This document shows positions 12,719 to 41,628 of a stretch of 64,000 bases of DNA, in pieces. The notes beneath the pieces were generated by a model that worked only from the letters and a program-made list of their open reading frames with translations, searched no databases and was not told the origin of the DNA. The translations under genes were made by a program, and so were the position numbers. The stretch comes from Deltaproteobacteria bacterium (lineage in GTDB: Bacteria; Myxococcota_A; Polyangia; Polyangiales; Houyiibacteriaceae). Numbering within the stretch: the first letter of the stretch is position 1; every line of letters starts with the position of its first letter. Where the stretch lies: the NCBI GenBank assembly GCA_034670305.1, contig JAXMNT010000010.1:64001-128000 (forward strand). The letters run 5' to 3'.

Positions 12719-12818
12719 CAGCGGGCACTATGCCGTGCGCGGCCAGCTGGATCCAGCGCTGCGGTGTGGGTGGGCTCGGCAGGATGGGAGGCCGGCGGAG
12801 GCTTCGACTCTTCCAGCC

Positions 12819-13406: not shown

Positions 13407-13529
13407 GGGGCAATCCTAGTACGAAACCAACGGGGGTCGCCGGTCATCGTTCCGTCACACCTGGCACCTGCGAGAAGAGCCCCGAGGTCTGGACCTCGAG
13501 GCTCGATTCTTTCCCGCGCTTGAGGCGCC

Positions 13530-14420: not shown

Positions 14421-14491
14421 CGGGGTTCCTTAACTGCCACCACCGAGAAGGTGGAGTGGGGTGGTGCGTGCGTCCTTCATGCGTGCGTCCT

Positions 14492-15394: not shown

Positions 15395-16260
15395 TAGATG
15401 TCCACCGCGAGGATCTTGCGGGACCAGATGATCCCGAGCAGCCAGAGCGTGAGCGCTGCGGCCAGAATCATGTACCCGACGAAGTTGGTGGTGAGCGGCT
15501 CGAGCCAGGTGCGGTCGATCCACGTGAGCAGAAGGGTCATGCCGAATGGAAGCACCGCGAGCACCACCGTCTGGCCCTTGCCTTCTGCGGTCTTGGTCCG
15601 GACCACACCTTCGAGTCGCGCCATCTCACGAAGCGACGAGGCGGACGTCTCCAGGATCTTCGGCAGGTCGCCACCGGTCTGGCGGGCGATGACCAGCGTC
15701 GCGAGCGCGCCGCTCACCACCTGGCTGCCAATGCGCTCCGACGCGTTGAGGACCGCTTGGTCGAGCGGGGTGCCGAGTTGGTTCTCTTTCACCAAGAGGT
15801 CGAGCTCTTCGCTCATCGGCGGCTGCACGAGGTTGACGGTGGAGTTGATCGCTTCACCAATCGCCGGGGTCGCCTTGAGCGCGTTGGCGAGCATCAGCAG
15901 CCACCCATCGAGCTGAATCTCGAGCTTCTCGATGCGCTGCTTCTTCTTGCTCGAGAGGCTGGCAAAGGGCGCGATGCCGACCAGCGCCGCCGCCACGACC
16001 GCCAGGACTTCGCCGGTCGCGGCGAAGACCAGAAGCAAGATCGAGATGATGATCGCCTGGTTGCGAGCGATCTCCGCACCGGTCTGTTTCAAGAGAAGAA
16101 ACTTCACGTACGCGTCGAGCTTGGAGACGTAGATGGCCCACTGGGTCTTGAGCGGACTGTTGGGCAGCGAGATCGCCAGGTAGATCGCGAGGAAGGATCC
16201 GACCGCCATCAAGCCGATCGCCACCCACCCGCTGACTGGACTTGCGAAGAACTCGTTCAT
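15394..16260 (-). CDS. tadB: TadB / type II secretion F-family platform protein
   Basis: LANALKA, ARQTGGDLPKIL, VRTKTAEGK, with TM segments. Confidence 0.9.
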   Translation of the reverse strand: MNEFFASPVSGWVAIGLMAVGSFLAIYLAISLPNSPLKTQWAIYVSKLDAYVKFLLLKQTGAEIARNQAIIISILLLVFAATGEVLAVVAAALVGIAPFASLSSKKKQRIEKLEIQLDGWLLMLANALKATPAIGEAINSTVNLVQPPMSEELDLLVKENQLGTPLDQAVLNASERIGSQVVSGALATLVIARQTGGDLPKILETSASSLREMARLEGVVRTKTAEGKGQTVVLAVLPFGMTLLLTWIDRTWLEPLTTNFVGYMILAAALTLWLLGIIWSRKILAVDI

Positions 16261-17981
16261 CAGAGGTACTCCCCGTCGCCATCAACCAATCCGTAGGTGA
16301 TGAACTCATCGAGGAACGAGGGCAGGTAGCCGCTCGCTCGGTACTCACCGGTCACGGTCCCGTCTTCTTGGGTGCCGGTCCGGTGGTAGGCGAAGATGTC
16401 GTTGAGGATCCAGTCGCCCTTTTCGTCGAGCCCACTGACCTCGGTGATGTAGCTGACCCGGCGGGAGCCGTCGCTGAATCGGCTCTGCTGGACGATGAGG
16501 TGCACCGAGCCCGCGATCTGCTCTCGGATCGCGCGACCGGGTAGGTCGATGCCGCTCATGAGACAGAGCGTCTCGAGACGGGCGACCGCTTCGAGCGGAG
16601 AGTTCGCGTGGGTCGTGGTCATCGAACCTTCGTGACCCGTGTTCATGGCCTGGAGCATGTCGAGCGCTTCGCCGCCACGACACTCACCGACCACGATCCG
16701 GTCCGGACGCATACGAAGTGCGTTCTTCACGAGATCGCGAATCGAGAACTCGCCCTTGCCTTCCATGTTGGCAGGCCGGGTCTCGAGGGAGACGACGTGC
16801 GGCTGATCCAACCGCAGTTCCGCCGCATCTTCGATCGTGACCACGCGCTCGCGCATGGGAATGGCGGCGGAGAGGACGTTGAGCAGAGTGGTCTTGCCCG
16901 AGCCGGTGCCGCCGGAGATGACGACGTTCTTCCGTACCTGCACAGACCGCACGAGGAACGTGGCCATCCGCTGCGTCAAGCTGCCGAAACGCACCAGGTC
17001 CGCGATCCGGAGTGGGTTCTTCTGGAACTTACGAATCGTGATGCACGCGCCGTTGATGGCGAGCGGCTTGATGATCGCGTTCACACGCGAGCCGTCTTTG
17101 AGGCGCGCGTCCACGAGCGGGGTGGACTCGTCGATGCGACGGCCGAGCGGCGTGACGATGCGTTCGATGACCGCGCGCGCGGACTCGTCGTCCGTGAACC
17201 GCAAGTCGGTCGCCCAGAGCTTGCCGCCCTTCTCGATGTAGATCTTCGAGGGATGGACGACCATGATCTCTGAGCAGTCTTCGTCGGCGAGCAGCCGCTC
17301 GAGCGGGCCGAGCCCCAGCGCTTCGTCTGCCATCTCCCGCATGAACGCGTTCTTGTCGGCGTTCGGCGGGATGTCGTGCACGAGCTGCTGCAGGATGCGG
17401 CCAAGCGCGGCAAGCACCTTCGGCCGCATGGACGCGTCGTCCATGTTCGACCGATCGAGGCTCACCAGATCGAGATGGTCCAACAGCATCCGGTGCACCC
17501 GGCGTCGCAGCTCCGCTGCAATGTCGGCGGTGCCGCCCGCGATCTGGAGCACGTCCTCGCCGGCATCGTTCTTCACCGTCCGTTCGGTCGGATCCTTGTG
17601 CGGCTTGGCGGGTTTGGGCGGAGGTGCAGCGGCGGCGGGCGCGGCTTGCGGCGCTGCGGCCCTCGAAGGCGGTGGGTCACCAATGCGGCGCAGCCGGACC
17701 AGGTACGGTCCGATCTGGAGCGGAATGTTCGGCGGGGTGTCGACCTTGGATCGTTTGACACGCTGAGTACCCATCAGGGTCCCGTTCGCGCTTTGATCGG
17801 TGAGCTTGAACCCGCGCTCTGAGGGCTCGACGATCAAGTGCCGCCGGCTGACCTCGGGAGAGGGCAGCACGACGTGGCAACTTGGATCCCGGCCGATGAC
17901 GACAGGACCATGCGCCTGGATCGGCAGCTCCTCGACGCTTCCGTCGGGCATTTCGATCGACAGCAGGACTCCCGTCGTCAT
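16260..17981 (-). CDS. cpaF: FHA-fused CpaF/TadA ATPase (copy 1)
   Basis: Canonical FHA motifs IGR, VSRRH and SANGT at the N-terminus. [31 protein letters not shown] and TTTHAN in the ATPase. Confidence 0.95.
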
Positions 17982-17984
17982 CTC

Positions 17985-19175
17985 TCAGTCTTCGGCGGGC
18001 GTGGTTCGCGGAGCGACGCCTTGCACACGGGGCTGTTCCATCAGTTCGACTTCATCCACGCCGCCGCGGTACTCCTCGTACAGACGAATGGCTTCTTGGA
18101 TGCGGTTGCGCTGCTGGAGCGGAATCGCGTTCACGACGCTCGGAACGATGAACATGAGCGCTTCGCTCTCTTCGAACCGGCGCGAGTGGCTGCCGAAGAG
18201 GGCACCGAGCACGGGGATCTGGCTGAGGCCGGGAAGGCCCGAGCGGTTGCGGCCCTCGGAGCGGGAGATGAGCCCACCGAGCACGATGGTCTGACCGAGC
18301 TCGAGGTTCACGATGGTGTTCAGGGTCGAGGTGGTTCTGCCAGGAATGCCGGTGCCGCGGTCGTCCGCGAGGTCCGACACGTTCGCCTGGATGCGAAGTT
18401 CGATGCGGCCGGTCTCCGGATCGTACCGAGGCTGGCACTGGATCTCGGTGCCGAACTCGATCTTCTGAACCTGGCCGGAGAGCGCGCCCTGCACCGCAAC
18501 GTTGATCTCGCCGCCAGCGCTGAACTGCGCATCGGTGCCGTTGGCGGTGATGAGCGCGGCCTGTCGGTAGAGGCGGGCCCAACCGTTGCTCTGTGCGATG
18601 TCGATGCGGGGGAGCGCCGACTGGAGCGCCAGCGTCACTTGGCTCTCGACTGACTCGCCGGTCGCCCACTGCGTCTGGATCTGCGCGGTGCTCTGGTTGG
18701 AGCCGATCGAGCCGGGGAAGTTGATGCCGATCGCGTGGCTGTAGGTGTCGGAGAGAAGGACGAAGTACAGGTCGAGACGGATGTTCTCGCGCGCTTGCAC
18801 GCCGCCCTGCTCTTCTTCGACTTCGCCGCCGGGCACCGTGATTCGGTACTGGACCTGGGAGCCGTCGCGCATGATGAGGAGAAGAGACGTGTCGCCGGGC
18901 CGCTGGCCGACGATGACGAATCGGCTCTGGTCGTCGGTGAGACGCACCTGGACGATGCCGCGCGCGCCTTCGGAGTAGGAGCGGACGCCGTCGGCAGAGA
19001 TGGTCTCTTGCTCACCCACTTCGACGGTCAGCTCGCGCGGTCCCTGCTGCTGGGCAGAGGCCATGCTGGCCGACGCGAGCACACACGCCGTGGCGAGCCG
19101 GAACAACGTCGTGCTGCCGGTGACACCACTGGCTCGCTTCGCGAGACTGCGCGCTGTCGGTTTTCTCGATTGCAT
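17985..19175 (-). CDS. cpaC: CpaC/RcpA-like secretin
   Basis: Signal peptide, pilus-formation N-domain (GQRPGDTSLL) and secretin C-terminus GLPGLSQIPVLGALF...FIVP. Confidence 0.85.
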   Translation of the reverse strand: MQSRKPTARSLAKRASGVTGSTTLFRLATACVLASASMASAQQQGPRELTVEVGEQETISADGVRSYSEGARGIVQVRLTDDQSRFVIVGQRPGDTSLLLIMRDGSQVQYRITVPGGEVEEEQGGVQARENIRLDLYFVLLSDTYSHAIGINFPGSIGSNQSTAQIQTQWATGESVESQVTLALQSALPRIDIAQSNGWARLYRQAALITANGTDAQFSAGGEINVAVQGALSGQVQKIEFGTEIQCQPRYDPETGRIELRIQANVSDLADDRGTGIPGRTTSTLNTIVNLELGQTIVLGGLISRSEGRNRSGLPGLSQIPVLGALFGSHSRRFEESEALMFIVPSVVNAIPLQQRNRIQEAIRLYEEYRGGVDEVELMEQPRVQGVAPRTTPAED

Positions 19176-19972
19176 CACTCGATCCTCATGATGGTTTCCA
19201 TTGTCTGTCGCCGACGCTGAATCTTCTGCCGGAACTCGGCTTCGATGAGGTCGGTGTCGGTCGTCTCGGGCACACCCTCGACGATGGCCACATCGTCGGG
19301 GTTTCGAAGCACGAGCTGCAGCAGCCCGCGGTCCCGCGCGTGGGTGAGCATGGTGGCCTGTTCGAGCGTCACCGCAAGGCTGACGTCTCGGCCGCGTCGG
19401 CTGGAGCTGGCCTGGTTCTCGTCGGCCTGGGTCTGGTCGGGACCACCGGTGTCGGTGCCGACCGCGAGCACGAGCACGTTCTGAAGCAGAGGCACGGTGA
19501 CGCGGGTCTCGTCGACGGATCCCGGCCGCGTGGCCGTGAGCAGCACATCCACGCGGTCGCCCGCACGGAGCAATCCACCGAACGCACTGGTGACACCGGT
19601 GCGAACGGTCATGGCACGCATGCCCTCGCGCAACAGGGTCGCCAGGTCGCGGCGCTCGCTGCCCGAGGTCGCCAGGTCGGACCACAACAAGGATTGGTTG
19701 GCACGAAGGGCGGCGTTCACGCGCACCCCGAGCACCCGACGCAAGTCGGAGACCCGCACGTGGCGATCCTCGACGTACGCTTCAGGGAGCGGTCGGGCAG
19801 AGACGTTGGTGTCGGTCAGGGGTTCCCCGATCGCCATGTCCGAGTTGACCATGAGGACTTCGATGGGTTCTCCACCAGCGGCCTCGGTTTCGAATCGACG
19901 CATGTACAGGCCGAAGAGAGCGACTCCGACGAGTGCGACGACTACAGCTGCAAGCAGCGCGGTCTTGTTCAT
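19175..19972 (-). CDS. cpaB: Flp pilus assembly protein CpaB/RcpC
   Basis: N-terminal TM, SAF-like domain, GMRAMTV, GDRVDVL, LLQNVLVLAVG, LVLRNPDD. Confidence 0.92.
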   Translation of the reverse strand: MNKTALLAAVVVALVGVALFGLYMRRFETEAAGGEPIEVLMVNSDMAIGEPLTDTNVSARPLPEAYVEDRHVRVSDLRRVLGVRVNAALRANQSLLWSDLATSGSERRDLATLLREGMRAMTVRTGVTSAFGGLLRAGDRVDVLLTATRPGSVDETRVTVPLLQNVLVLAVGTDTGGPDQTQADENQASSSRRGRDVSLAVTLEQATMLTHARDRGLLQLVLRNPDDVAIVEGVPETTDTDLIEAEFRQKIQRRRQTMETIMRIE

Positions 19973-20072
19973 TCTACCTCACCCAGCGTCTTCCAAAACC
20001 CCGTGTGGGGCCCGACGCGAAGGTACCTCAGACCGGGGGTGCGCGGAAGCGCGATCCGATCGTGAACGCGGT

Positions 20073-21053
20073 TTACGGTTCTTGGTCCGAGCTGAGGATG
20101 CTGGCGCTTGTGACGCCTTCCGACTCGGTGAAAAGTAGGGTGATCACACGGTCGCCCTGGGAGACGGCGAATGTCTCTGCGCCATCGACGGTCACCCGCT
20201 CGCCAGCTCGGCCAGCCAGTTCTTGCCAGCCAGCCTCCGGGAGGCGGGCGCGGTACCAAGTGTTCAGTTCTTCGGGCGAATGATCCTCGGTCGCGTAGAG
20301 GGTCATGCCGTAGGGCTGGCCCGCCACTCGAGAGGACAGGAGCCGCCGCGAATCCGGAGGACGCGGGATGCCATCGACATCGGAGCCAACCGCATCGCCT
20401 TCGGCGGGAAACATCTCGTAGATGTTGATCGGGCTGTCCGTGTACATCGAGATGATCTGCGAGACCTCTTGGTCGCCGTCCCGGTGTCGTTCGACGTAGG
20501 CGTAGCGGAGCGCGCCCACCTCGGAGAGATCGCCGCTGTCCAAGAACGCCGCCACGCGCTCGGCGATCGACGCCGCGTCGCCGTTGTCGTGGTTCTCGCC
20601 GGGGTCGAGACAGGCGACGAAGGCCGTCGGTCCGAAGTCGTGACGAATCACCGAGTCCGAATCGGCCGGGTCACCGGCGCCGAGCGTTCCGACCGCCTGC
20701 ATCTCGGCGATCTGCTCGTGCATGCGGTCGAGCTCCATGCACTTGGCTTCGAAATGGTCGAGCACCGCGTCGACCGGCTGGCGCACCGAGCCACTCATCA
20801 GGTGCACGACGGCGCCGTTGAACTCGACGTCGCGCACCACACCCTGGGTCGATCCCGGGTAGCGCATCAGTTCCGCGCCGAGCCCGAGCATGACCTCGTG
20901 CACATCCGCTTCGGCCTGACGGACCGCGAGGTAGGCGAATCCGGCCCACACCGCGAGCAGGAAGACGAGCACGCGGAGCAGCGCTGGAAGTTTGCGGAGC
21001 GAGCGGCGGGCAAAGCCTTCGCGCGGCTTCGTCGGTGTCTTGGTCGTGGCCAT
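20073..21053 (-). CDS. Membrane-anchored protein of unknown function in the Tad locus
   Basis: One N-terminal TM. Translationally coupled to the upstream TadE-like gene. Confidence 0.75.
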   Translation of the reverse strand: MATTKTPTKPREGFARRSLRKLPALLRVLVFLLAVWAGFAYLAVRQAEADVHEVMLGLGAELMRYPGSTQGVVRDVEFNGAVVHLMSGSVRQPVDAVLDHFEAKCMELDRMHEQIAEMQAVGTLGAGDPADSDSVIRHDFGPTAFVACLDPGENHDNGDAASIAERVAAFLDSGDLSEVGALRYAYVERHRDGDQEVSQIISMYTDSPINIYEMFPAEGDAVGSDVDGIPRPPDSRRLLSSRVAGQPYGMTLYATEDHSPEELNTWYRARLPEAGWQELAGRAGERVTVDGAETFAVSQGDRVITLLFTESEGVTSASILSSDQEP

Positions 21054-21598
21054 CAGAAGATGTCTCCGATGATGCCGTCCCAGACGTCGCCGAGGATCGA
21101 GCCGATGGTTTGACGTTCCGGGTTGCAGACCATCGTGTAGCCCGATGAGACATCCACCGTGCCTCCCCCCAGATACGCTGGTCGATCGTACGACGCGTTG
21201 CCGAATCGGGTGACCTGGCCTCCGAAGAGCCCATCGAGCAGGCTGCCGAGCACGCCACTGAGCGCGCCACCGACGATGCCTTCACCACCGATGTCGGAGA
21301 CGGCACCGCGCAGGTCGCCCATCGCCGTGCCGTCGTCGGTCGGGAATCCTTCGGCGGTGGCGGAACAACTCGGACATCCGGACTCGTCGCCGGCGCCGCA
21401 ATCGCTGAATGCCGCGGCCCAACCGGCTTGCCGGGACTCCGCCATGGAGATCGTCTTCGCGATGGCGCTGTCGTGCACCATGTAGAAGAGCGCGAACACC
21501 AAGATGTACACCGGCAGCATCACGACTGCTTCGGTGTAGGCGGCGCCCTTCTCATCGGCGTGCAGGGTCTTGCGCTGGGTCTGACGTACGATCTTCAT
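21053..21598 (-). CDS. TadE-like minor pilin
   Basis: Prepilin motif DEKG|AAYTE followed by a hydrophobic helix. Confidence 0.8.
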   Translation of the reverse strand: MKIVRQTQRKTLHADEKGAAYTEAVVMLPVYILVFALFYMVHDSAIAKTISMAESRQAGWAAAFSDCGAGDESGCPSCSATAEGFPTDDGTAMGDLRGAVSDIGGEGIVGGALSGVLGSLLDGLFGGQVTRFGNASYDRPAYLGGGTVDVSSGYTMVCNPERQTIGSILGDVWDGIIGDIF

Positions 21599-21607
21599 GG
21601 TCGTTCC

Positions 21608-23803
21608 CTAGTGCGAGAAGAGGTTTCCGAGGAGGGCACCAAACCCGCCTCCGCTGCCACAGGATCCGCCTCCGCCACCACCGGCGCATGCGTCTTCGAT
21701 GGAACCCTCGTCCGCGTCGCCGAAGCTCACGCGACGCAGCCGTGCCATCCAGGACATGTCCCACATCCACTCGGTGCGGCCATGGTCGAGGCCACCTTCC
21801 CAAGTCTCGGTCTGGTTCCAGAAGTACTCCGCCTGGGCCACGCTGAAGCGAGACACCTGGCGTGCGAACGACATGAACTCTCCGACCGTACCGCCGCCGC
21901 CATCGGCCTCGGATCGATCGGTCGCGGCGATCGCCACCCCGTTGTGACCCTGCCGCGACGCGTTCTGGCCCACGACGATGCCGCGCAGCTGGAAGTCGTC
22001 GTCGCCGAGGTAGAGGTCGCCTTCGGTCGAGTCCGGGCAGTCGGTCGAGATGAACGCGCTGTTGCGGTAGCGGCACACCTGCTTGGGACAGCCCCACGCG
22101 CTCGAGCCACCGCAGCTGCCATCGCCCGGCGAGTCACCGAGTTCGAGGGAGACCTCTTCGGTGGTGGTCTTGGTGCAGCTCGAGATCTCGTAGACGATCT
22201 GAACCATCTCCGTGAAACTCTCGACGTCGCTCGGACGTCCCGAAGTCTGCATGCGCCGGAGCGCGTTGGCTTCGGTGGGGAGCGCGTCGCACTGACCCGC
22301 GCAGAGGAGGGGATCGGCGGTGCCACGACAGGGGTTGGTCGGCGCTTCGTATCGGCATGCCGCGCGCCAGGGCGACGACTGCGGACCCCAGAGGGACGGC
22401 CTTCCGAAGCCGGGCCCGTAACACTGGCGGATGTCGTCCCGCCGCTCGGGGCGGCCTTCCACCAGACCCTGGTTCATGTCGTTGCGCTGAATGTCCATGA
22501 ACCGGACCTGACAAGTGCCGCTGCTCGTATCCTTGTAATAAGCGCGGTAGCGGTTCTCGAGCACGTACTGGATGTTCTCCAGGTTGCGGTCTCGGTCCTT
22601 GCGGCAGGTGTTGGCGGCCTGGTTGGCGTTCGCGATGCACTGGCTGTATTCCGAGCCGGTGAGCTGCGGCGAGAATCCGAACGAACCCACACCACCGCGG
22701 GACGAATCCGGTCCCGAACCCTTGTCGCCACATGCGCCGCGGGGCACGGCGTCGGCTGCGTCTTCACAGCTGCCGGGATCGCACTCGAGAATGCTCACCA
22801 CCCGCAGCGAAGCGGTGTAGTCCTCGCACACGCTCTCCCGAGCGCTCTGGCATGCGGGTGAGTCTCGGCTCGACCGACATGGATCGCACCCCGAGTAGGG
22901 TTCGACGTCTCCGGTGTCCGGATCGATGCAGCTGTGCGCGCACGCTTGTTGGACCGCGCTCTCGGGGAAGCCCACCGTGGTCTCGGTGCCGAAGGAAGGT
23001 GGCTCACTCGAGTCCCCGTCGCTGGCGCCGCAGTAGTAGGCCTTGAGGGGTGTGAGGATCGCGCCGATCGAACCGCTCACGGCACTGCCGATCGCACCGC
23101 CGACCACTGGGATCGCTTCGAACGGCGCCGCCACGACGTCCTTCACCATCTTGCCACCGCGGTCGCAGGTCTCGCGTAAACGATCGTCGTCGACGGGTAA
23201 ACGCCCCCACACCGGCCACACGAATCCGAACTCCGAGGGTGGCGAATACGCAGAGGCCCGCGACATGTCGACCGCGCGCACTTGAGAGAGCGCTGGCCAG
23301 ACGAGCGCGATCACGTCCTGTGCTTTGGACGCCACCTTGGTGATCTTCTGCACCGCGGTCTCGACGCGGTTGATGATGTTGTTCAGGCGGATGTTGATGT
23401 TGGCGAGCGTCGGCAACACGGCGCAGCCGATGCCTGGGAAGAAGCACAAGCCCGTGGCGATCGCGGTGCCGATCGCCACCAGCACCTGCGCGACCCGGAG
23501 CGCGAGAAGCACGGCCACGGCAACAGCCATGATGATGTTGAGCAGCACGATGAGGTTCATGCCGCGGGCATTCATCGACGCGCCGGCGAATGACGTCGCG
23601 TCGGCGGCGTCCTGCATCGCTTCGCGGTGAATCACCGCCTCGGTGATGCCCACGATGTAGTAGAGGAGCGCCACCAAGAACACGGCCATGAACAGGCCCA
23701 TGATCATGATCGCGCCGCCCTTGTCCTCGTGGAGCGAGCGCGACTCGTCGTCGAGCGCATCCACGTCCACAACGGCGGGTACGTGTCGGGTTCGTCGGAT
23801 CAT
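21608..23803 (-). CDS. TadG-like large Cys-rich minor pilin / tip protein
   Basis: DKGG|AIMIMGLF pilin-like N-terminus, MQDAADATSFAGA Tad motif, long Cys-rich body. ATG overlaps the upstream stop (ATGA). Confidence 0.8.
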   Translation of the reverse strand: MIRRTRHVPAVVDVDALDDESRSLHEDKGGAIMIMGLFMAVFLVALLYYIVGITEAVIHREAMQDAADATSFAGASMNARGMNLIVLLNIIMAVAVAVLLALRVAQVLVAIGTAIATGLCFFPGIGCAVLPTLANINIRLNNIINRVETAVQKITKVASKAQDVIALVWPALSQVRAVDMSRASAYSPPSEFGFVWPVWGRLPVDDDRLRETCDRGGKMVKDVVAAPFEAIPVVGGAIGSAVSGSIGAILTPLKAYYCGASDGDSSEPPSFGTETTVGFPESAVQQACAHSCIDPDTGDVEPYSGCDPCRSSRDSPACQSARESVCEDYTASLRVVSILECDPGSCEDAADAVPRGACGDKGSGPDSSRGGVGSFGFSPQLTGSEYSQCIANANQAANTCRKDRDRNLENIQYVLENRYRAYYKDTSSGTCQVRFMDIQRNDMNQGLVEGRPERRDDIRQCYGPGFGRPSLWGPQSSPWRAACRYEAPTNPCRGTADPLLCAGQCDALPTEANALRRMQTSGRPSDVESFTEMVQIVYEISSCTKTTTEEVSLELGDSPGDGSCGGSSAWGCPKQVCRYRNSAFISTDCPDSTEGDLYLGDDDFQLRGIVVGQNASRQGHNGVAIAATDRSEADGGGGTVGEFMSFARQVSRFSVAQAEYFWNQTETWEGGLDHGRTEWMWDMSWMARLRRVSFGDADEGSIEDACAGGGGGGSCGSGGGFGALLGNLFSH

Positions 23804-24810
23804 TCGCACAGCTCGCTTCGATGGCAGGCCGAACCTCGGCCGACGTGGCATTCCAGGTCGCGGTTGATGCAGGTGTTGCCGCAGGGCTTGCCGATGTTGC
23901 AGACCGGGCTGCAGGAAGTGACGCAGTCGCGGCTGCTGCTCGAGCCTCCGCCGGAGCTCGCGGTGTCGGCTTCGCCACCCTGTTCGCTCGCGTACTGGTA
24001 ACCGGCGCCCTGGTAGATGAGGGTGCTCTCGGCACGCAGGATCTGGAAACACGCGCCGGACAAGCTCGCCACCGCCGTGAAGAGGCCCGCGCCCTCGCCG
24101 AAGATCGGCATCATCGCGCCCGAGAGCTCGTGGTAGCCGTCCTCGCTCTGCGAGCTGAGGTTGATCGGCGAATCGCACATGAGCTGCGCCGCGAACGGCA
24201 CCGCGCAGTTGAAGAGGTACGTCACGCGGGTCGTGATCGGGACCGGCGTCACGGGCGGCGGTGAGGCAGGAAAGTTCTGCGCGCCACTCGTCTGGACCCC
24301 AGTCGCACCGGGTCCGGTCGGGAACGTCACCGCGACCGCGGTGAAGTTGTAGATGAGCCCGCTCAAGAATCGATAGTGGGCGTCGCCGATCGCGCCGCGC
24401 ACACTCTCGGCGCCGCCCCGACCGAGGTGGGAGGGCTGAGGCGCGATGCCGAGCAACGGCTTGTACGCCGCCCAGCGGATCGTGTTGAGGCGCGGATCCC
24501 CGTTGAAGGAGACCGCGCCGAAGATGTCGAACCCACCGAGCGTGGAGGGCGTGCCGCCGTCTCCCGAGTCGCTCCAGTTGATCTGGTGTTTGGGGGTCTC
24601 GCTGCCGCGGTAGCGCGCGGGATCGTCCGGAAGCACGACCACCGCCGAGCGCGCAGCGGCGTCGGCGGAGTGTTGAACGATGACGTCGGCCCCGTAGAGG
24701 AGACCGATCTGGGTCATGCCCAACCACAGCGTGAAGAGCGGCATGAACACCACCAGGAACTCGACGTAAACCGCGGCGCGGGTGTCGTCTCGAAGGCGCC
24801 GTCTCTTCAT
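23800..24810 (-). CDS. TadE-like minor pilin with C-terminal Cys-rich module
   Basis: DDTRA|AVYVEF, VQHSADAAARSAVV TadE motif, C-terminal 8-Cys segment. Confidence 0.82.
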   Translation of the reverse strand: MKRRRLRDDTRAAVYVEFLVVFMPLFTLWLGMTQIGLLYGADVIVQHSADAAARSAVVVLPDDPARYRGSETPKHQINWSDSGDGGTPSTLGGFDIFGAVSFNGDPRLNTIRWAAYKPLLGIAPQPSHLGRGGAESVRGAIGDAHYRFLSGLIYNFTAVAVTFPTGPGATGVQTSGAQNFPASPPPVTPVPITTRVTYLFNCAVPFAAQLMCDSPINLSSQSEDGYHELSGAMMPIFGEGAGLFTAVASLSGACFQILRAESTLIYQGAGYQYASEQGGEADTASSGGGSSSSRDCVTSCSPVCNIGKPCGNTCINRDLECHVGRGSACHRSELCE

Positions 24811-32762: not shown

Positions 32763-33740
32763 TCAGCCGCGAACCGCCCCGCACACCTCGGCCCCATCGA
32801 CCCACACACTCCCATCCACCGGCAGCAACACCATCTGCTGCACCGTGATCTCCATCTTCACCTCCGGATCCCCGAGGATGGAGAACGCCTGAGGCGGCGT
32901 CAGGTGCGTGTTCGCGAGCAGCCGCGCGCGGTCGAATCGCTGGCACGCCGTGGCGCCGAGGATCCCGCGCGCGCCGCCATCGGTCAGGCTGCGGTAGTCG
33001 TTCGTGACCACCAAGGGACCAGCATCAACCGTGCGCAGCGCGTGGCGCGATGGGGTGCGCTCGACCACCACGCGATCGCCTGGGCGCGCGCCGACCACGA
33101 GCAGCAGACAATCGGACGCGATGGGCGTCTCCGCCAGGCGCAGCACCGCCTCGTCGAAGTCTGACGCGGTCTCCAGCACTTCGCGGATCAAGAACGTGAC
33201 TGGCGTCTGCACCGCGGGTGGGTCCTCGCTCAAGACCGCGTTGAGCGTGACCGAGAACTTGCCGGGCGCGACGCCGCTGAACGCACCGATGAACCCAGGC
33301 CAGCCCACCGTCCGGGCTACGACGCGTCCGCTCCGCCGCAACTCGAAGACGGCCGTGTGCTTCTGCAAGACCTTGTGCGGTGCATGCCAGTCGAGGTTGC
33401 GCGCATGCAGCGGACCAGACGCCGTGTCGACCCCGAACGCGGTGCAGCCGAGCAAACCGGAGAACGCGAACTTAAGCGCGTCGTAGTAGAGGTTCGCGAG
33501 CGCGGCGTGTGCATGGGGCCGCCCGGCGATCGCGGCCACGGCGTCGAGCTCGGCGCGCTGCTCGACCGTGAGGCATTGCGCTTCGTAGCCCGCGAGCAGA
33601 GGCGTGTACTCGTCCACCCCACCCAGGTCCTCGAGGTAGACGTCGCAGAGCTTACGAATCGCGGACGCGTGAGGGGCGAGCCCGCGCCACCGGGTGGCGG
33701 GCGGGTCGTCGAGGTCGATGGCGAAGACGGGCGTGGACAT
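32763..33740 (-). CDS. Acid ceramidase / NAAA-like Ntn cysteine hydrolase
   Basis: N-terminal [11 protein letters not shown], autocleavage G|CTAF...HARNLDW, VTLNA, VVTND. Confidence 0.82.
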
Positions 33741-33804
33741 GACGGGGCCGGCCAGAGTGGGTCCGACTCGGTGCTTGGCAAGGCCGTCCGAGTCGATAGA
33801 GGAC

Positions 33805-34021
<217 letters not shown>

Positions 34022-34022
<1 letters not shown>

Positions 34023-34049
34023 CGAACCGAATCCTCTCCTTCGGTTCGC
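34022..34049 (-). terminator. Perfect 10-bp hairpin immediately after the larE stop
   Basis: GCGAACCGAA-TCCTCTCC-TTCGGTTCGC. No U-tract. Confidence 0.55.
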
Positions 34050-35140
34050 TACGGCAGCAGGTTGAGGCGGCCTTGGCGGTAGCCGCTGGGATCGAGATGC
34101 ACTCTCTGGAAGCCGGTGGCGCGGAGCGCGCATTCGATCTCGGCGAAGAGGTCGCGGGCGCGGGGGAGTTCGTCTTGGCCGACTTCGAGGCTGGCCTCTT
34201 CTCCGAACCAGCGGACGCGGACCACGCGGAAGTCGAGCGCGCGCATTGCGCGTTCGGCGGCAGCGACTTGGGCGAGGCGCGCAGCGGTGATCTCGGTGCC
34301 GTAGGGAAAGCGGCTCGAGAGGCAGGCGAGCGCCGGTTTGTCCCAGACCGGCAGACCGAGTGCGTGGGCCGCCGCGCGGATGTCCGCTTTGGTGAAGCGG
34401 TGGTCGTCGAGCGGGGAGCGCACGCCGAGTTCCTTGGCGGCTTTGCGTCCCGGACGGTGGTCGCCCCGATCGTCGAGGTTGAACCCGTCGACGACCACCG
34501 CGAAGCCATGCTCCGTCGCGAAGCGGCGGGCCGCACCGTAGACCTCGGTCTTGCAGAAGTAGCAGCGGTTCTTCGGGTTGGTCGTGTAGCGCGCGTCGTC
34601 GAGCTCGTGGGTGTCGACCAGCGCATGCGGCGCGCCGAGCGACGCGGCGATCTCGGCCGCGTGCGCGCGCTCCTGGGGATCCAGGCTCGCAGACACCGCA
34701 GTGAATGCGTGCGCCCTCCCCGGCCCGAGGGCACGCACCGCCTCGGCGAGCAGATACGACGAGTCGACCCCACCACTGAAACACACGAGCACGGACGGCT
34801 GCGACGACAACCAAGTCCGCAGCCCAGAAGCGGAACCGGAACCGGAACCGGAAGCGGAACCGGAGGCGGAAGCGGAAGCGGAGGCGGACGCGGAAGCGGT
34901 ACCGGAAGCGACAGCGGAAGCGGTACCGGAAGCGACAGCGGAAGCGGAACCGGAAGCGGCTTCGGCGTCGGAATCGGCTTCGGCGTCGGAATCGGCTTCG
35001 GCGTCGGCGTCGGCTTCGGCTTCGGAATCGGCTTCGGCTTCGGCTTCGGCTGCGGCTTCGGCTTCGGCGTCGGCGTCGGCGTCGGCTTCGGGATCGGCCC
35101 CGCCGCCACGAACCCCACGCACTCGCTCAACCGGCGTCAC
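34049..35140 (-). CDS. larE: LarE, ATP-dependent sulfur transferase (NPN cofactor biosynthesis)
   Basis: PP-loop [22 protein letters not shown] and [10 protein letters not shown]. Likely GTG start overlaps the larC stop, with a repeat tract in frame in the N-terminus. Start uncertain. Confidence 0.9.
34829..35098. repeat. Hexamer tract T3, (GCGGAA)n then (GGCTTC)n, quasi-palindromic
   Basis: Read directly from sequence. Lies within the probable larE reading frame. Confidence 0.93.
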
Positions 35141-36309
35141 GCCGTCCCCGTTCGGAACGCAGCGACCGCCGCTTCGAACACTTCTCCGAGCGGCACGCCG
35201 TGCGTCTCGGCGGCCGCGCGGCACGAATCGAACTCCGGTGCGACCAGCTCGGGCAACCCATCGCCGGAGGCCACCTTCACCTCGAGCGCGCCGAAGCGGG
35301 TCTCGACCGTCACCACGCGGCGCGGCCGCTCGACCCGCTCGACCCCGCGTACCCGCACGCCGAGCGAGCCGGTCTCGGTCAGCAGGATCTCGGTCAGCAC
35401 GTCGCGGGTCGCCGCATCACACAGGGCGCTCAGCATGGTGCCGAGCCGACCCTTCTTCATCGTGATCGGCGTCATCCACGCGTCGCGCGCGCCGGCCGCC
35501 ATCAACCGGGCGAGCGCATAGGCGAGCCGTTCCGGAGGGCAGTCGTCGATGTTGCATTCGATCACCAGGAGCGAGCGGCGCGTCTGCGATCTCTCCGCCA
35601 CGCCCCGCACCACCCGCAATACGTTGGGCCGGTCGGGCAGCTCCCGGGTGCCTGCGCCCCAGCCCACCGCGACCGGCTTCATCGCAGGCCAGCGTACGAA
35701 GCGGGTCGCTTGGGTCGCGACGATGGTCGCGCCGGTCGGCGTGACGAGCTCCGCGTCGACGCCGCCATCGAAGGTGGCCACGCCGCGCAGGCACTCGAGC
35801 GTCGCGGGGGCCGGCAGCGGCAAGACGCCGTGTTGAGAGTGGGTGGTCCCGCGGCCGAGCGGAAGCGGCGACGCGACGATCTCGCCACCGAAGAACTCGA
35901 GGCACGCCGCCACCGCGACGATGTCGACGATCGAGTCGAGCGCGCCGACCTCGTGAAAGTGCACGTCGTCGACCGCGCATCCGTGGACCGCCGCTTCGGC
36001 CTCCGCGAGGCGCGCGAACATCGCGACCGAACGCGCGCGCACGGCCGGCGGGAGCGCCTGGAGCAGTTGCCGGATGTCGCGCCACGTGCGCTGCGGCGCG
36101 TCCTCGAGCGGCTCGACCAGGAACTGCTTCGCCGCGATCCCAGATCGGAACACCGTTCGAACACTTCGTTCGTGGCGCTCCAGTGGCAGCGCCGAGAGCG
36201 CCTCGGTGATCGCGGCCTCCGGTGCGCCCGCGTCCACGAGCGCCGCGACGCACATGTCGCCGGCGATGCCGCTGCCCGACGCGTCCAGAAAGAGCAGGTC
36301 GGGTGTCAC
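35137..36309 (-). CDS. larC: LarC, nickel insertase (NPN cofactor biosynthesis)
   Basis: [46 protein letters not shown] and ETGSLGVR. Confidence 0.95.
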
Positions 36310-37055
36310 TCGGACCTCGACGACACGATGCGGGCGGCGAGGCATGCCGCGCCGAAGCCGTTGTCGATGTTCACCACAGCGACCCCTGGCGCGCAGCCGC
36401 TCAGCATGCCGAGCAGCGCCGCGAGCCCACCGAAGCTCGCGCCGTAGCCCACGCTCGTCGGCACCGCGACGATGGGCCGGCTGGTGAGGCCCGCCACCAC
36501 GCTCGCGAGCGCGCCCTCCATGCCCGCGATCACCAGAAGCACATCGGCGCGTTCCAGCAGCGGCCGATGGGCGGCGATGCGGTGCAGTCCCGCGACGCCC
36601 ACGTCGTCGAGCCGTTCGACGCCGTACCCGAAGGCGCGCGCGGTGACCTCGGCCTCCTGCGCGACGAACCGGTCGCTGGTGCCCGCACACACGATGACGA
36701 AGGTGTGCGGGCGGCTCGGCCGCGCGTCCCAGACGACCGTGCGGGCGAGCGGATCGTGGTGTGCGTCGGGCAGCGCCGCCACGACCTCCGCGGCCGCGTC
36801 GGGGTCGACCCGGGTCGCGAGCGCGACCCCGTCGGAGGCATGCAGGTCCTTCATGATCTCGACGATCTGCGCGGCGGTCTTGCCCGCCCCGTAGACGACC
36901 TCCGGCAACCCGGTGCGCAGACTGCGGTGGTGGTCGACCTTCGTGTGCACGAGATCGCGAAACGGCAGCTCCGCGAGCTCGGCCATCGCCTCGTCCACCG
37001 CCAGCTCGCCGCCCCGGACGCGTTCGAGCAGCGCACGCACGTGTTCCGGACTCAT
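36306..37055 (-). CDS. larB: LarB, NaAD carboxylase/hydrolase (NPN cofactor biosynthesis)
   Basis: [42 protein letters not shown] and [11 protein letters not shown]. Confidence 0.96.
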
Positions 37056-37110
37056 CGCGCGCACGGTATCAGCGCGATGGGTACGCACCAATCCGAACCG
37101 GAACTCCAAC

Positions 37111-37396
37111 GGCTTCGGCTTCGGCGTCGGGGTCGGGGTCGGGGTCGGATTCGGCTTCGGCTTCGGCCTCGGCTTCGGCTTCGGCGTCGGTTTCGGCTTC
37201 GGCGTCGGCTTCGGCTTCGGCGTCGGCTTCGGCGTCGGTTTCGGTTTCGGCCTCGGCGTCGGCGTCGGCTTCGGCGTCGGCTTCGGCTTCCGCTTCGGCT
37301 TCGGCTTCGGCTTCGGCTTCGGCTTCCACTTCGGCGTCGGCGACCGCTTCCGCGACCGCTTCCGCTTCCGCTTCCGCTTCGGCTTCCGCTTCCGCT
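37111..37396. repeat. Hexamer tract T4 (GGCTTC/GGCGTC)n then (CGCTTC)n
   Basis: Between the aminopeptidase stop and the larB start. Confidence 0.93.
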
Positions 37397-37423
37397 AACG
37401 CGAACGCGACCGCCGCATATGAG

Positions 37424-38869
37424 TCAGCTCTCTGCGTCCTCGCCCGTGCCCTCGTCCTCGTCTTCGGTGAAGAGCTTCTCCACGAGCGCGAAACAGGCGC
37501 GAAGCGCCATCGCTTCGCCTCCACGCGGGCGACCCGGGCGGGTGTCGTTGTTCCAGGCCATCAGATCGAGGTGACCCCAGGTGACGTCGTTCGAGACGAA
37601 GCGGGAGAGAAAGAGCGCTGCGGTGATCGCGCCGCCGAAGCGGGTGCTCGAGGTGTTGCTGACGTCGGCGACCTTCGACTCCAAGTAGCGCTGGTACGGC
37701 GCGTGGAGTGGCATCTGCCAGACCGGATCGTGTTCGCGTCGTCCGAGCTTCTGCAGCGCCACCGCGAGCTGGTCGTCGTTGGTGAAGAGCGCCGGCATCT
37801 CGGTGCCGAGCGCGACGCGAGCGGCGCCGGTCAACGTGGCGAAGTCGAGCAACAACTTCGGCGCATCCATCGACGCTTCGTGGAGGGCGTCGCAAAGCAC
37901 GAGCCGACCTTCGGCGTCGGTGTTGCCGACCTCGACGGTCAGGCCCTTGCGGGTCTGCAGCACATCGAGCGGCCGGAAGGCGTTGCCGGAGATCGAGTTC
38001 TCCACGGCGGGCACGATCATGCGCAGCCGCACCGGGAGCTTCGCGTCCATGATCGCGTGCGCGAGCGCGAGCACGTGGGCGCCGCCGCCCATGTCCTTCT
38101 TCATGATGAGCATGCCGCCAGCCGGCTTGATGTCGAGACCGCCGCTGTCGAAGGTCACGCCCTTGCCGACGAGTGTGACCTTCGGGTGACTGGCGTCGCC
38201 CCACGTCAGGTCGATCACCCGCGGCTCTTTGACGCTCGCGCGGCCCACCGCGTGCACGGCAGGCCAGCCCTTCTTCAAGAGGGCGTCGCCGCGAATGGTC
38301 GTGACCTTCGCGCCGTGCAGGCCCGCGAGCGCGTTGGCGCACGCTTCCATTTCGGCCGGTCCCATGTCCTCGGCTGGGGTGTTGACGAGGTCGCGCACGA
38401 GGTACGTCGCTTCGGCGATGCGCCGCACCGAATCTTTGCGCGCGAGCTCCGGCCACACGAGTTTGCGGGTGGCTTTGGCCGGCGACGCCTTGTAGCGATC
38501 GAACCGGTACGCGGCGAGCGCCCAGCCGAGCGCTGCGGCTTCCGCGTGGCGTTCGTCGGGCAAGCCGTCGAGTTCGTAGCGGCCCTTCGGCACGCTCCCG
38601 AAGAGCCGCGCGTAGACGAAGGGGTCGGCGTCGCTCGGGCGTACGAAGAGCCCGCCCCACACGGTGCCGTCGCGCTTCGGCAACATGGTCGCGCGCCCGA
38701 CGCTGCTCGACCCGGCCGACGACTTCACCCAGTTGCGCACCGCGGCCGGCGCATCCTTGACCCACTTCTTGAGGTCCGATTTGGCGACCGCATGGATCTT
38801 CACGGTGGTCTTGGTCGGGCGCGCGGCGAAAGCCGACGCGACGCGGTCGAACGGGAGGATGTCGGTCAC
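37424..38869 (-). CDS. M17 leucyl aminopeptidase family protein
   Basis: VGKGVTFDSGG, MKKDMGG, NTDAEGRL and ATLTGA. GTG at 38869 follows AGGAG. Confidence 0.93.
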   Translation of the reverse strand: MTDILPFDRVASAFAARPTKTTVKIHAVAKSDLKKWVKDAPAAVRNWVKSSAGSSSVGRATMLPKRDGTVWGGLFVRPSDADPFVYARLFGSVPKGRYELDGLPDERHAEAAALGWALAAYRFDRYKASPAKATRKLVWPELARKDSVRRIAEATYLVRDLVNTPAEDMGPAEMEACANALAGLHGAKVTTIRGDALLKKGWPAVHAVGRASVKEPRVIDLTWGDASHPKVTLVGKGVTFDSGGLDIKPAGGMLIMKKDMGGGAHVLALAHAIMDAKLPVRLRMIVPAVENSISGNAFRPLDVLQTRKGLTVEVGNTDAEGRLVLCDALHEASMDAPKLLLDFATLTGAARVALGTEMPALFTNDDQLAVALQKLGRREHDPVWQMPLHAPYQRYLESKVADVSNTSSTRFGGAITAALFLSRFVSNDVTWGHLDLMAWNNDTRPGRPRGGEAMALRACFALVEKLFTEDEDEGTGEDAES

Positions 38870-38983
38870 GGAAGAGCTCCTGGAGATGACGCGTGTCGAG
38901 GGAGACGCATGGGGGAGGCGAGAGGCTGCCGGAGGTTGCCACGGTCTGTTGTGAGACGTCCATGCGCGCGACGTCGGTCGCGG

Positions 38984-39580
38984 GTCGCGGTCGCGGTCGC
39001 GGTCGCGGTCGCGGTCGCGGTCGCTGTCGCCGTCGCTGTCGCTGTCGCGGTCGCTGTCGCGGTCGCTGTCGCTGTCTCTGTCGCTGTCTCTGTCGCTGTC
39101 TCTGTCTCTGTCGCGGTCTCTGTCGCTGTCGCTGTCGCTGTCTCTGTCTCTGTCTCTGTCTCTGTCTCTGTCTCTGTCTCTGTCTCTGTCTCTGTCTCTG
39201 TCTCTGTCTCTGTCTCTGTCGCTGTCGCTGTCGCTGTCTCTGTCTCTGTCTCTGTCGCTGTCTCTGTCTCTGTCTCTGTCTCTGTCTCTGTCTCTGCTTC
39301 GGGCGGAACCCGATGCCGAAGAAGCCGAAGCCGAAGCCGAAGCCGAAACCGATCCCGAACCCGAACCCGAAGCCGAACCCGAAGCCGAACCCGAAGCCGA
39401 ACCCGAAGCCGAACCCGAAGCCGACCCCGACCCCGACCCCGACGCCGAAGCCGAAGCCGAAGCCGACCCCGACCCCGAAGCCGACCCCGAAGCCGACCCC
39501 GAAGCCGAACCCGAAGCCGAACCCGAAGCCGACCCCGATGCCGAAGCCGATCCCGACCCCGATCCCGAAGCCGAATCCGC
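38984..39580. repeat. Hexamer tract T5 (GGTCGC)n-(TGTCGC/TGTCTC)n-(GAAGCC/GAACCC)n, about 600 bp
   Basis: Between the DUF362 stop and the aminopeptidase start. Confidence 0.95.
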
Positions 39581-39605
39581 CGACTTCCGGTCCGGGTTTT
39601 GGGGC

Positions 39606-40640
39606 TCAGGCGTCGCGCAGCGCGCGGAGGTGGGGTTCGTCCAGGACTTCGAAGCGCTGGGCGATCGCCTCGATCGCTTCGCCGCGCTGTTCGATGTTCT
39701 TCTCGAGGATCGGGCCGAGCCAGCCGGAGGCGAGCGGAAGGTAGGTGGTCCCAAGGGGGTTGAGGCCCATGAGGCGTGCGCAGGTGGCGTCCACGGCGGG
39801 CAGGTTGCGGCCCATCACGAGGCAGCCGAGTTCCTTCGGGTTGCCCATGATCGGTCCGTCGCCGTCCATACCCACGACTCCGTCCACGATTGCGAAGTCC
39901 GGTTGAATGGTGGCGTTCAGATCCACGATCGACTGCGGGATGCCGGCGCGGTGGAGCGGGTTCTTCGGCCAGCCGTAGACGAGCCCCGGCACGGTGCCGA
40001 AGAAGTTCTTCATCGAGCAGGTGATGCCCGCCCAGTGGTGGGTCTTCATCTTCGGGAGGGAGACCACGAAGTCCGCCTCGAGGACCGTCTTCGGCAACCA
40101 GAGGTGTTCGAAGTGCGAGACGCCGCCGCCGTTCGGCACCTGCACGATCTCGTCGTGGTTCAGATCGACGAAGTCGAGTTCGCCGGCCTCCAGCGTGTCG
40201 ATCATCCCGGACTCGGCGAGCACGAGCCAGCTGTCGCGGCGGTGGCCCTGTCCTTCGGCGAGGAACGGGTCGGCGCCTAGGCCGCGCAGCGCCTGGGCCA
40301 CCGCGAGCACCACCGAGGGATGCGTGTTGATGTGTCCGTGGCCGAGCGCGGTCTCCACGAGGTTCGGTTTCAAGAGCACCCGCTTGCCGGAGAGCTCCGT
40401 CTCGGTGACCCCGAGCACCGCGAAGCCTTCGAGGATCTGCGCCTCGAGCGGGAGCGGTTCGTACGCCGGCGCACGCGCGATGTAGACCGAGGCTGCGAGC
40501 CCGTTCTCCCGGCCGTCGAGCAGCTCGCCGATGGTCGCGGCGGCGGCTCCGGTCGCGAGCACGCCGAGCCCGCGCAGGAGCGTGCGCCTCGAGATCTTCG
40601 CTTCGGACGAAGCAGGCTTGCGCTCTTTGTCAGTCGCCAT
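39606..40640 (-). CDS. DUF362 family protein with twin-arginine signal
   Basis: SRRTLL Tat motif, [38 protein letters not shown] and AVDAT. Confidence 0.85.
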
Positions 40641-41628
40641 CGACCACGCCCTCGTCTCGTGCGCTCGCGTCCGGAACGCCACCCGCGCCGGCCGCGTCCG
40701 GGTCCGCCATGACTGCGCCGACGGGCACGACCGGCTCGGCCGGGATGCGCTGGCCCGCCGGGCCCCACAGCATCGGCTCGGTGTCGCTCAGCGCGAGCAA
40801 GAGGAGCGCGTCGTGCATCGGGTCGGGCGGCCGCCGGCGGGGATGTTCCACGCTGTTCAAGATCCAGTCGTCGCCTTCGGGCATCGCCTCGCCCCAGGCT
40901 CGAAGCGCCATGAGCGACCACGCGAGCGAGATGGGCGCGCGGATGGATCGCACCGCGCCCCGCAGGTAGTCGATGGACCGATCGACCTCGTCGGTGCGCT
41001 CTTCGCCGACGAGCGCCAGAAGCGCCACGCCAGTCGTCGCCGGAAACGGGCGCAAGAGGTTCCGGAGCACCCGCGTGTTGCCGTAGTTCCAGCCGCCTTC
41101 GGGCAAACATCGATCCCGCAGCAGGCGCGCCCCCTCGGCGACCCGCGTGTGGTCGGCGTGACCGGCCGCACGCAATCCGATCATCGCGTAGCCCGTGGGC
41201 TCCACCCACGAGTGTGTCTCCGCGACCCACGACCATCCCTTGATGCTCGGGTCGTGGCCCAGCTGCGGGTCGCGCGCGTAGACCGTGCCGGCCGTGGTGA
41301 GCAGGTGCTGACTCGCTTGGACCGCGAAGTCGTTCTCCGAGCCGCGCACCCGCGCCGCAGCCGCGAGGGCGAGGGAGGTCGGCCAGAGCGGTTCGGGAAG
41401 TTGCATGGTTGCAGGCACCCCACCCCGTTCGTCCTGGATGCTGGCGATCCAGTCGAGCGCGTCGCGCACCAAGGCGGGTGAATCGCTCCGGGCGTGGAGC
41501 GCCAGCGCGGCGAGTGCGGTGGCTTCGGACGCGCCGCCGGTGGTGCGGTACCCGTACGACCAGCGAACGCCCCCGCCCACCGCGGTCCCTCGCCGCAATC
41601 GTTCCAGCAGAGTGTCCGCCGCGCCCAC
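40630..41628 (-). CDS. Prenyltransferase/squalene-cyclase-repeat (alpha/alpha toroid) protein
   Basis: QDERGG, GWSW...SWVEPT and EGGWNYGN repeats. Overlaps the DUF362 start. Confidence 0.7.
   Translation of the reverse strand: MGAADTLLERLRRGTAVGGGVRWSYGYRTTGGASEATALAALALHARSDSPALVRDALDWIASIQDERGGVPATMQLPEPLWPTSLALAAAARVRGSENDFAVQASQHLLTTAGTVYARDPQLGHDPSIKGWSWVAETHSWVEPTGYAMIGLRAAGHADHTRVAEGARLLRDRCLPEGGWNYGNTRVLRNLLRPFPATTGVALLALVGEERTDEVDRSIDYLRGAVRSIRAPISLAWSLMALRAWGEAMPEGDDWILNSVEHPRRRPPDPMHDALLLLALSDTEPMLWGPAGQRIPAEPVVPVGAVMADPDAAGAGGVPDASARDEGVVDGD

Follow-up and report, generated by a model that had tools for sequence, protein, structure and literature searches.

A Tat-tagged DUF362 protein and its alpha/alpha-toroid partner, encoded near larBCE, as a candidate nickel-pincer enzyme

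The window analysed here is a 64,000-nucleotide stretch of a Deltaproteobacteria bacterium genome (contig JAXMNT010000010.1, positions 64,001 to 128,000). Between positions 34049 and 41628 it carries the nickel-pincer genes larB, larC and larE, a gene for a DUF362 protein with a twin-arginine translocation (Tat) signal and, overlapping the latter, a gene for an alpha/alpha-toroid protein. We estimated the probability that the DUF362 protein is a client of the nickel-pincer cofactor at about 0.55, and the DUF362 and toroid proteins together are a strong candidate for a nickel-pincer enzyme of a new class. An earlier, sequence-only reading of this DNA had proposed an exported, nickel-pincer-dependent DUF362 enzyme encoded in a larBCE cluster without larA, and the present analysis supported it in part.

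All genes of the cluster lie on the minus strand. The DUF362 gene (39606..40640) encodes 344 aa from the ATG at 40640, which overlaps the stop codon of the toroid gene by 11 nt. An alternative GTG start is present at 40682, and the database form of the protein (P0002) begins at the ATG. The match to PF04015 was full-length (profile positions 1–200 of 200; 169.6 bits against a cut-off of 24; E 1.2e-49). P0002 also scored 127 bits against the NCBIfam model NF052623 ('Npun_F2552 family protein'), for which the cut-off is 500. From this model, NCBI names at least one other DUF362 branch, without a function. The toroid gene (40630..41628; 332 aa) barely exceeded the cut-off for SQHop_cyclase_C in Pfam (26.9 bits against 26.1).

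larB (36306..37109; NF033503, 274 bits against a cut-off of 175), larC (approximately 35137..36294) and larE (approximately 34049..34850; TIGR00268, 290 bits against 150) were intact and co-oriented, as the earlier reading had stated. Their frames were free of stops and all exceeded the NCBIfam cut-offs. The LarC1 and LarC2 domains of larC were in a single frame (PF01969, E 1e-124; TIGR00299, 193 bits against 90; NF052512, 133 bits against 50). The start of larE is approximate, with the open reading frame (ORF) remaining open up to 35224.

The absence of larA, previously noted for the window, could be extended to the whole genome (7.93 Mb in 105 contigs, 96.2% complete). It gave no match in a search with Lar_N (PF09861) at E ≤0.001, and two control genomes were matched in the same search. 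The genome holds a single DUF362 gene and a single larC, both in the cluster and about 3.3 kb apart. LarC, the DUF362-like gene and LarA were found in none of 16 other genomes of the same family (0/16), and the block therefore looks as if it was acquired as one unit.

The structure of the DUF362 protein was modeled with AlphaFold2 from 44 relatives (predicted local distance difference test, pLDDT, 91). All 19 Foldseek matches in the PDB at E ≤0.001 were LarA or LarA homologues. Superposition of the model on 12 LarA-family entries with VIA-align gave Z scores of 14.3–17.5 and root mean square deviations of 2.8–3.5 Å over 209–222 aligned residues, and the next best match after this family, S-adenosylhomocysteine hydrolase, gave a Z score of 6.0. 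The predicted model thus shows the LarA fold, in agreement with the sequence-only reading.

The aligned span covered residues 56–334 of the DUF362 model and residues ~34–294 of LarA, that is, the N-terminal domain of LarA. The DUF362 protein stops after this region, and the C-terminal domain of LarA has no counterpart in it. The Pfam scan of the protein returned PF04015 only, with no match to Lar_N or to the LarA C-terminal domain. According to the available part of a 2025 paper (PMC12611868), cofactor binding in LarA homologues falls to the N-domain and substrate binding to the C-domain. The DUF362 protein would accordingly be, as modeled, a shortened relative of lactate racemase that has the cofactor domain and lacks the substrate domain.

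The available part of a 2024 paper (PMC11770544) places DUF362 in the same Pfam clan (CL0471) as the LarA N-domain family (DUF2088), and on that ground used DUF362 as the outgroup for a LarA tree. The likeness to LarA (PF09861 plus LarA_C; PDB 5HUQ, 9EIA, 6D6Z and 9Q3J) thus comprises the N-domain fold, the clan, a His-x2-Ala-Gly-x5-Lys stretch and a genome-wide dependence on LarC, the last two described below. The DUF362 protein differs from LarA in the absence of a Lar_N match and of the C-domain, in its size (344 aa against ~425), in its Tat signal and obligate toroid partner, and in that the nickel-ligand His is not securely aligned.

The H201[10 protein letters not shown]211 motif is encoded at 40008..40040. 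The translation contained both SRRTLL and [11 protein letters not shown], the latter at 40040–40008, where the earlier reading had placed it. In hhalign, the Viterbi core paired residues 179–214 of the DUF362 protein with 151–186 of LarA, which is the His-x2-AG-x5-Lys stretch. H201 fell on LarA His174, AG on AG, and K211 on Lys184, so that the stretch singled out from the sequence proved to be the best local profile match to LarA; the equivalence of these residues comes from sequence alignment. The global hhalign alignment of the two proteins was meaningless and was set aside.

The two residues were nearly invariant among the 44 relatives (H201 in 43/44, K211 in 41/44). H230 of the P-K-N-P-L-H motif (39951..39953) is a candidate nickel ligand, proposed earlier as the equivalent of LarA His200. 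It was kept in 41/44 relatives and, in an ungapped reading, lies 11 residues past a conserved Pro-Gly, the same +11 offset as that of the invariant His of LarA, but hhalign left it unpaired.

The distribution of the DUF362 family was compared with that of LarC. The same 251 genomes of the organism's own phylum were searched with the DUF362 protein (E ≤1e-5), PF01969 and PF09861, and the cross-table was compiled by hand from the three genome lists. LarC was present in 126/129 genomes with a DUF362-like gene, against 42/122 genomes without one. For comparison, 111/112 genomes with LarA had LarC. Among genomes without LarA, LarC was found in 35/37 that carried DUF362 and in 22/102 that did not. 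All 20 genomes with an orthologue-grade match (E<1e-50) had LarC, and five of these, including the present genome, were without LarA. LarC without LarA occurred in 57 of the 251 genomes, 35 of which had a DUF362-like gene.

The same association was seen by family. In the 30 families listed, LarC was present in all 22 that had any DUF362, against one of the eight that had none. In one family (f18), DUF362 was found in 1/22 genomes and LarC in 2/22; in another (f27), the same four of six genomes carried both. In a third (f26), LarC was found in 5/7 genomes with DUF362 against 1/6 without. This third family had LarA in 0/13 genomes, LarC in 6/13 and a DUF362-like gene in 7/13, with LarC and DUF362 together in five.

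In Planctomycetota, LarC was present in 132/151 genomes. The reverse test was made with PF04015, which matched none of the 19 LarC-less genomes and 21 of 38 LarC-bearing ones, the 38 being the first of the 132 by handle number. A Synechococcus elongatus control had LarC and DUF362 and no LarA. The presence of DUF362 predicts that of LarC in two phyla.

Orthologues of the DUF362 protein, at 46–70% identity, were collected from 80 loci, mostly of Planctomycetota, the others being of Myxococcota, Acidobacteriota, Geobacter, Nitrospirota and gammaproteobacteria. Among the species represented are Geobacter hydrogenophilus, Aquisphaera insulae and Bythopirellula polymerisocia. The toroid gene was directly upstream of the DUF362 gene in 75/80. 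At the remaining five loci, DUF362 lies no more than 460 nt from a contig end. In a library clustered at 50% identity, four representatives (P0137, P0147, P0179 and P0183; 630–662 residues) were toroid-DUF362 fusions, two supported by Pfam and two by BLASTP (E 1e-29 and 1e-23). The conserved unit is the toroid plus the DUF362 protein. The earlier suggestion that the toroid acts with DUF362 was strengthened by the adjacency, the 11-nt gene overlap and the fused forms, from which binding of the two proteins is predicted. The linkers of the fusions held only a degraded relic of the Arg-Arg/hydrophobic region, and in P0183 a Gly replaced the second His.

The toroid model (pLDDT 86.7) had 8paj, 8pak, 3sqc, 7xru and 6sbe as its top Foldseek matches (E 9e-6 to 2e-4). 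Single-domain class II terpene-cyclase-like proteins were closest in fold, followed by C3d-type thioester domains. With the former (8PAJ, 8PAK, squalene-hopene cyclase, drimenyl-diphosphate synthase and MstE) the toroid shares the alpha/alpha barrel (TM score ~0.55, E ~1e-5) and Gln/Trp-rich repeat motifs. The toroid also has many invariant polar and aromatic residues.

DxDD is the conserved catalytic acid (proton-donor) motif of class II terpene cyclases. It was found in 2/37 aligned toroid proteins, at different places, and was absent from the window protein. The toroid differs from these cyclases in having no conserved DxDD and in being always paired or fused with DUF362. For lack of a conserved DxDD, an active terpene cyclase was rejected as its function.

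The Tat signal region of the DUF362 protein (40527..40592) consists of S-R-R-T-L-L and an Ala/Gly-rich hydrophobic stretch; in the translation, SRRTLL is followed by [15 protein letters not shown]. The twin arginines were kept in most relatives (R18 in 39/44, R19 in 40/44), and TatC is present in the genome. With motif, hydrophobic stretch and TatC, the protein fits the pattern of a Tat substrate, and its export is predicted. A stop codon directly precedes the toroid ORF in the window. In the orthologues, the toroid begins at its first helix, with no signal peptide or hydrophobic leader.

In the most likely account, the toroid and the DUF362 protein are the two parts of a single Tat-tagged, nickel-pincer-dependent enzyme. 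In the cytoplasm, the DUF362 protein would receive the nickel-pincer nucleotide from the neighbouring LarB, LarE and LarC. Lys211 would tether the cofactor, with His201 positioned over it as the acid/base residue. The loaded, folded protein would then be exported by the Tat pathway, and the signal-less toroid would travel along and work in place of the substrate domain of LarA. The chemistry is expected to be of the LarA type, in which transient hydride abstraction from a secondary alcohol would lead to epimerisation or oxidoreduction.

The surroundings of the pair pointed to a possible class of substrate. All ORFs lying between −7 and +8 kb relative to the DUF362 genes of the 80 loci were clustered, and representatives were scanned against Pfam; in 45/80, both flanks were at least 6 kb long. 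Tad/Flp pilus genes were frequent: prepilin peptidase in 35/80 loci, RcpC in 34/80, TadZ in 29/80, CpaF-type ATPase in 18/80, secretin in 17/80, Flp pilin in 14/80, TadE in 13/80 and TadB/C in 13/80. At least two Tad families were present in 38/80 loci, and in 26/45 of those with both flanks of this length; Tad context was not found in the other 19 full-flank loci. The nearest Tad gene was at a median distance of 595 nt from the pair. The pair and the tad operon were divergently oriented in 29 loci and ran in the same direction in eight; in some of the latter, the pair lay between tadZ and the ATPase gene. A large neighbour cluster ('c3', 61 loci) consisted of shadow ORFs of high-GC DNA and was dropped.

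In 10 loci of Pirellulales type (L018, L025, L051, L055, L056, L059, L066, L067, L070 and L077), a gene for a YfhO-like membrane protein of the glycosyltransferase C (GT-C) type, with 8–10 hydrophobic segments, was directly downstream of DUF362. It was followed in 9/10 by a glycosyltransferase family 2 (GT2) gene, the product of which has hydrophobic segments past the catalytic domain; L055 ends inside the GT-C gene. By analogy, genes of an extracytoplasmic system for lipid-linked-sugar glycosylation are laid out in this way. The Tad/Flp and GT-C/GT2 context suggests that the substrate is a sugar, possibly lipid-linked, for a surface or pilus glycan.

In the window, no Tad or GT genes adjoin the toroid-DUF362 pair. 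A Tad-like pilus locus (10866–24810, minus strand) is located on the same strand as larE, at a distance of about 9 kb. It contains genes for two T2SSE ATPases (one with an FHA domain), two T2SSF platform proteins, a secretin, RcpC, a TadE-like protein and a TPR protein. Elsewhere, the toroid-DUF362 pair is usually found within or beside loci of this kind.

Several observations weigh against a nickel-pincer role for the DUF362 protein or against its generality. The link to LarA in sequence was weak: hhalign against seven LarA homologues from related genomes gave E 0.06 and a probability below 1%, and phmmer and a 44-sequence profile search of the PDB sequences returned no LarA, the best matches being unrelated proteins with E 0.5–1.5. 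In hhalign, the nickel-ligand His of LarA sits in an insertion without a DUF362 counterpart. In the same alignment, H133 of GQGHR, earlier taken as a plausible equivalent of His108, lay one column away from the LarA His; it was kept in just 32/44 relatives.

The fusions bear on the same question. In P0183, a Pro occupies the site of the tether Lys. The fused forms are also without an N-terminal export signal, and neither export nor an extracytoplasmic location can therefore be generalised to the whole subfamily.

The gene neighbourhood and the genome counts hold further difficulties. In the fetched flanks (~10 kb), LarB, LarC and LarE were found at 1/80 loci only (L002); the association of DUF362 with larBCE inferred from the present cluster held genome-wide, with LarC in two phyla, but not as gene linkage. 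In the present genome itself, a 600-bp repeat and an unrelated aminopeptidase gene separate DUF362 from larB. A DUF362-like gene without a LarC match was found in three genomes of the own phylum (G022, G084 and G131, the first two in family f26). A Bacteroides thetaiotaomicron control likewise had DUF362 and no LarC; some DUF362 proteins therefore either can do without the nickel-pincer cofactor or get it otherwise.

The co-occurrence values themselves are to be read with care, as related genomes are not independent and Fisher values for them are too strong. Furthermore, LarC was found in 44/50 genomes holding an orthologue (50 of the 80 loci, mostly long-flank ones), which is no higher than the Planctomycetota background of 132/151. 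Four of the six holders without a LarC match had LarB above the cut-off. LarC being near-universal in Planctomycetota, its rate among orthologue holders was dropped as a discriminator.

The sparse linkage to lar genes and the LarC-less carriers of DUF362 would also fit an alternative in which the DUF362 protein uses another ligand or cofactor in its LarA-like pocket, and larBCE serve a client elsewhere, such as an NphT-like enzyme of the aldo-keto reductase (AKR) type. Clients other than LarA exist: the available part of PMC13524815 describes NphT, a hydride transferase of the AKR fold, and an ornithine cyclodeaminase. In addition, 22 of the 57 genomes with LarC and without LarA were also without DUF362, and therefore other clients must exist. 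We nevertheless considered this alternative unlikely. The LarC rate in genomes with DUF362 was close to that of LarA itself, no DUF362 was found in the LarC-less Planctomycetota, and the tether Lys and catalytic His were nearly invariant. DUF362 and larC, 3.3 kb apart here, were both missing from the family relatives. Moreover, L002, the closest relative (70% identity), shows a second arrangement of the same genes, in the order larB-larC-larE-toroid-DUF362, unlike that in the window. Its genome gave no LarA match.

A second alternative concerns the toroid and is compatible with a cofactor role for DUF362. The toroid may be a cytoplasmic maturation or proofreading chaperone, in the manner of TorD/DmsD, that is left behind when the DUF362 protein is exported. 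The lack of a signal peptide in the window protein and its orthologues, the translational coupling of its gene upstream of that of a Tat-signal protein, and the lack of a conserved DxDD motif all agree with this. On the other hand, single-chain fusions, of which there are four, would be unusual for a chaperone and its client, and the invariant polar and aromatic residues of the toroid suggest a binding site of its own. Known Tat chaperones also have a fold unlike that of the toroid. We therefore held a chaperone role to be improbable.

In a third alternative, the DUF362 protein would bind the cofactor or one of its precursors to carry, store or deliver it, and would not be an enzyme. This would suit the LarC co-occurrence equally well and the lack of the substrate-binding C-domain, but we considered it very unlikely: His201, the acid/base residue in LarA, is kept in 43/44 relatives; up to eight DUF362-like matches per genome fit a family of enzymes that has diversified; a cytoplasmic cofactor chaperone would hardly be expected to have a Tat signal and a partner protein of its own; and 20 genomes have LarA and LarC without DUF362, so that loading of LarA needs no DUF362.

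A broader form of the enzyme proposal can be outlined, which is speculative and, taken as a whole, improbable. DUF362 as a whole might be a second large family of nickel-pincer enzymes, serving most of the larBCE sets without larA. In the toroid branch, a terpene-cyclase-like, lipid-binding partner would replace the substrate domain of LarA, and after Tat export the pair would epimerise or oxidise a polyprenyl-phosphate-linked sugar outside the cytoplasm, as a nickel counterpart of the mycobacterial DprE1/DprE2 step. A GT-C glycosyltransferase might then use the product to decorate Tad/Flp pili or some other structure on the cell surface.

Which proteins use the cofactor in nickel-pincer makers without LarA has been an open question since 2014–2015, partly answered in 2026 by an AKR-fold enzyme, as far as the available part of the report goes (PMC13524815). 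Before NphT, according to the same text, no fold besides LarA had been shown to tether the cofactor. Like the DUF362 protein, NphT is a candidate client other than LarA, found through larBCE clusters without larA, with a conserved Lys and His proposed for cofactor tethering and nickel binding. It differs in being a TIM barrel unrelated to LarA, for which cofactor binding was shown by mass spectrometry and crystallography, whereas the DUF362 protein is LarA-like and known from sequence and model.

In the library searched, we found no paper proposing a link between DUF362 and the nickel-pincer cofactor beyond the use of DUF362 as an outgroup; the supplements of PMC13524815 were covered in part, and the rest may list DUF362 near larC. 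New here are the toroid-partnered, Tad-associated DUF362 branch and the genome-wide counts. If DUF362 proteins do bind the cofactor, both a cofactor and a chemistry would be assigned to a large and widespread family that so far has no function, and nickel-pincer catalysis would reach beyond the cytoplasm. The toroid branch would further link this catalysis to pilus or envelope glycan biology.

The remaining features of the cluster lie between DUF362 and larB and downstream of larE. The gap between the DUF362 and aminopeptidase genes is filled by about 600 bp of hexanucleotide repeats (38984..39579), in which Tandem Repeats Finder resolved two arrays of period 6 (38984–39296 and 39321–39579; 52 and 43 copies). 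With these repeats in between, the cluster may be two transcription units.

The M17 leucyl aminopeptidase gene (37424..38800, minus strand, start approximate; Peptidase_M17, E 6e-102) was found together with the toroid gene, described earlier as prenyltransferase-like, and the DUF362 gene, in agreement with the sequence-only reading. A homologue was found in 0/80 related loci, and the aminopeptidase was rejected as a member of the system. The ORF extends from 39754 to 37424 (776 aa), with the M17 domains beginning at residue 319. This apparent length arises because the hexamer arrays hold the frame open, and the start of the 776-codon ORF is probably not the real start of the aminopeptidase. 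In this frame, the arrays read as Gly/Ala-Ser repeats followed by Arg/Ser-Asp repeats.

Directly downstream of larE, an ORF (32763–34814, minus strand) weakly matched the acyl-CoA:6-aminopenicillanic-acid acyltransferase family (peptidase C45, E 3.5e-9). Its long frame overlaps larE in another frame, and its true start is probably near 34000.

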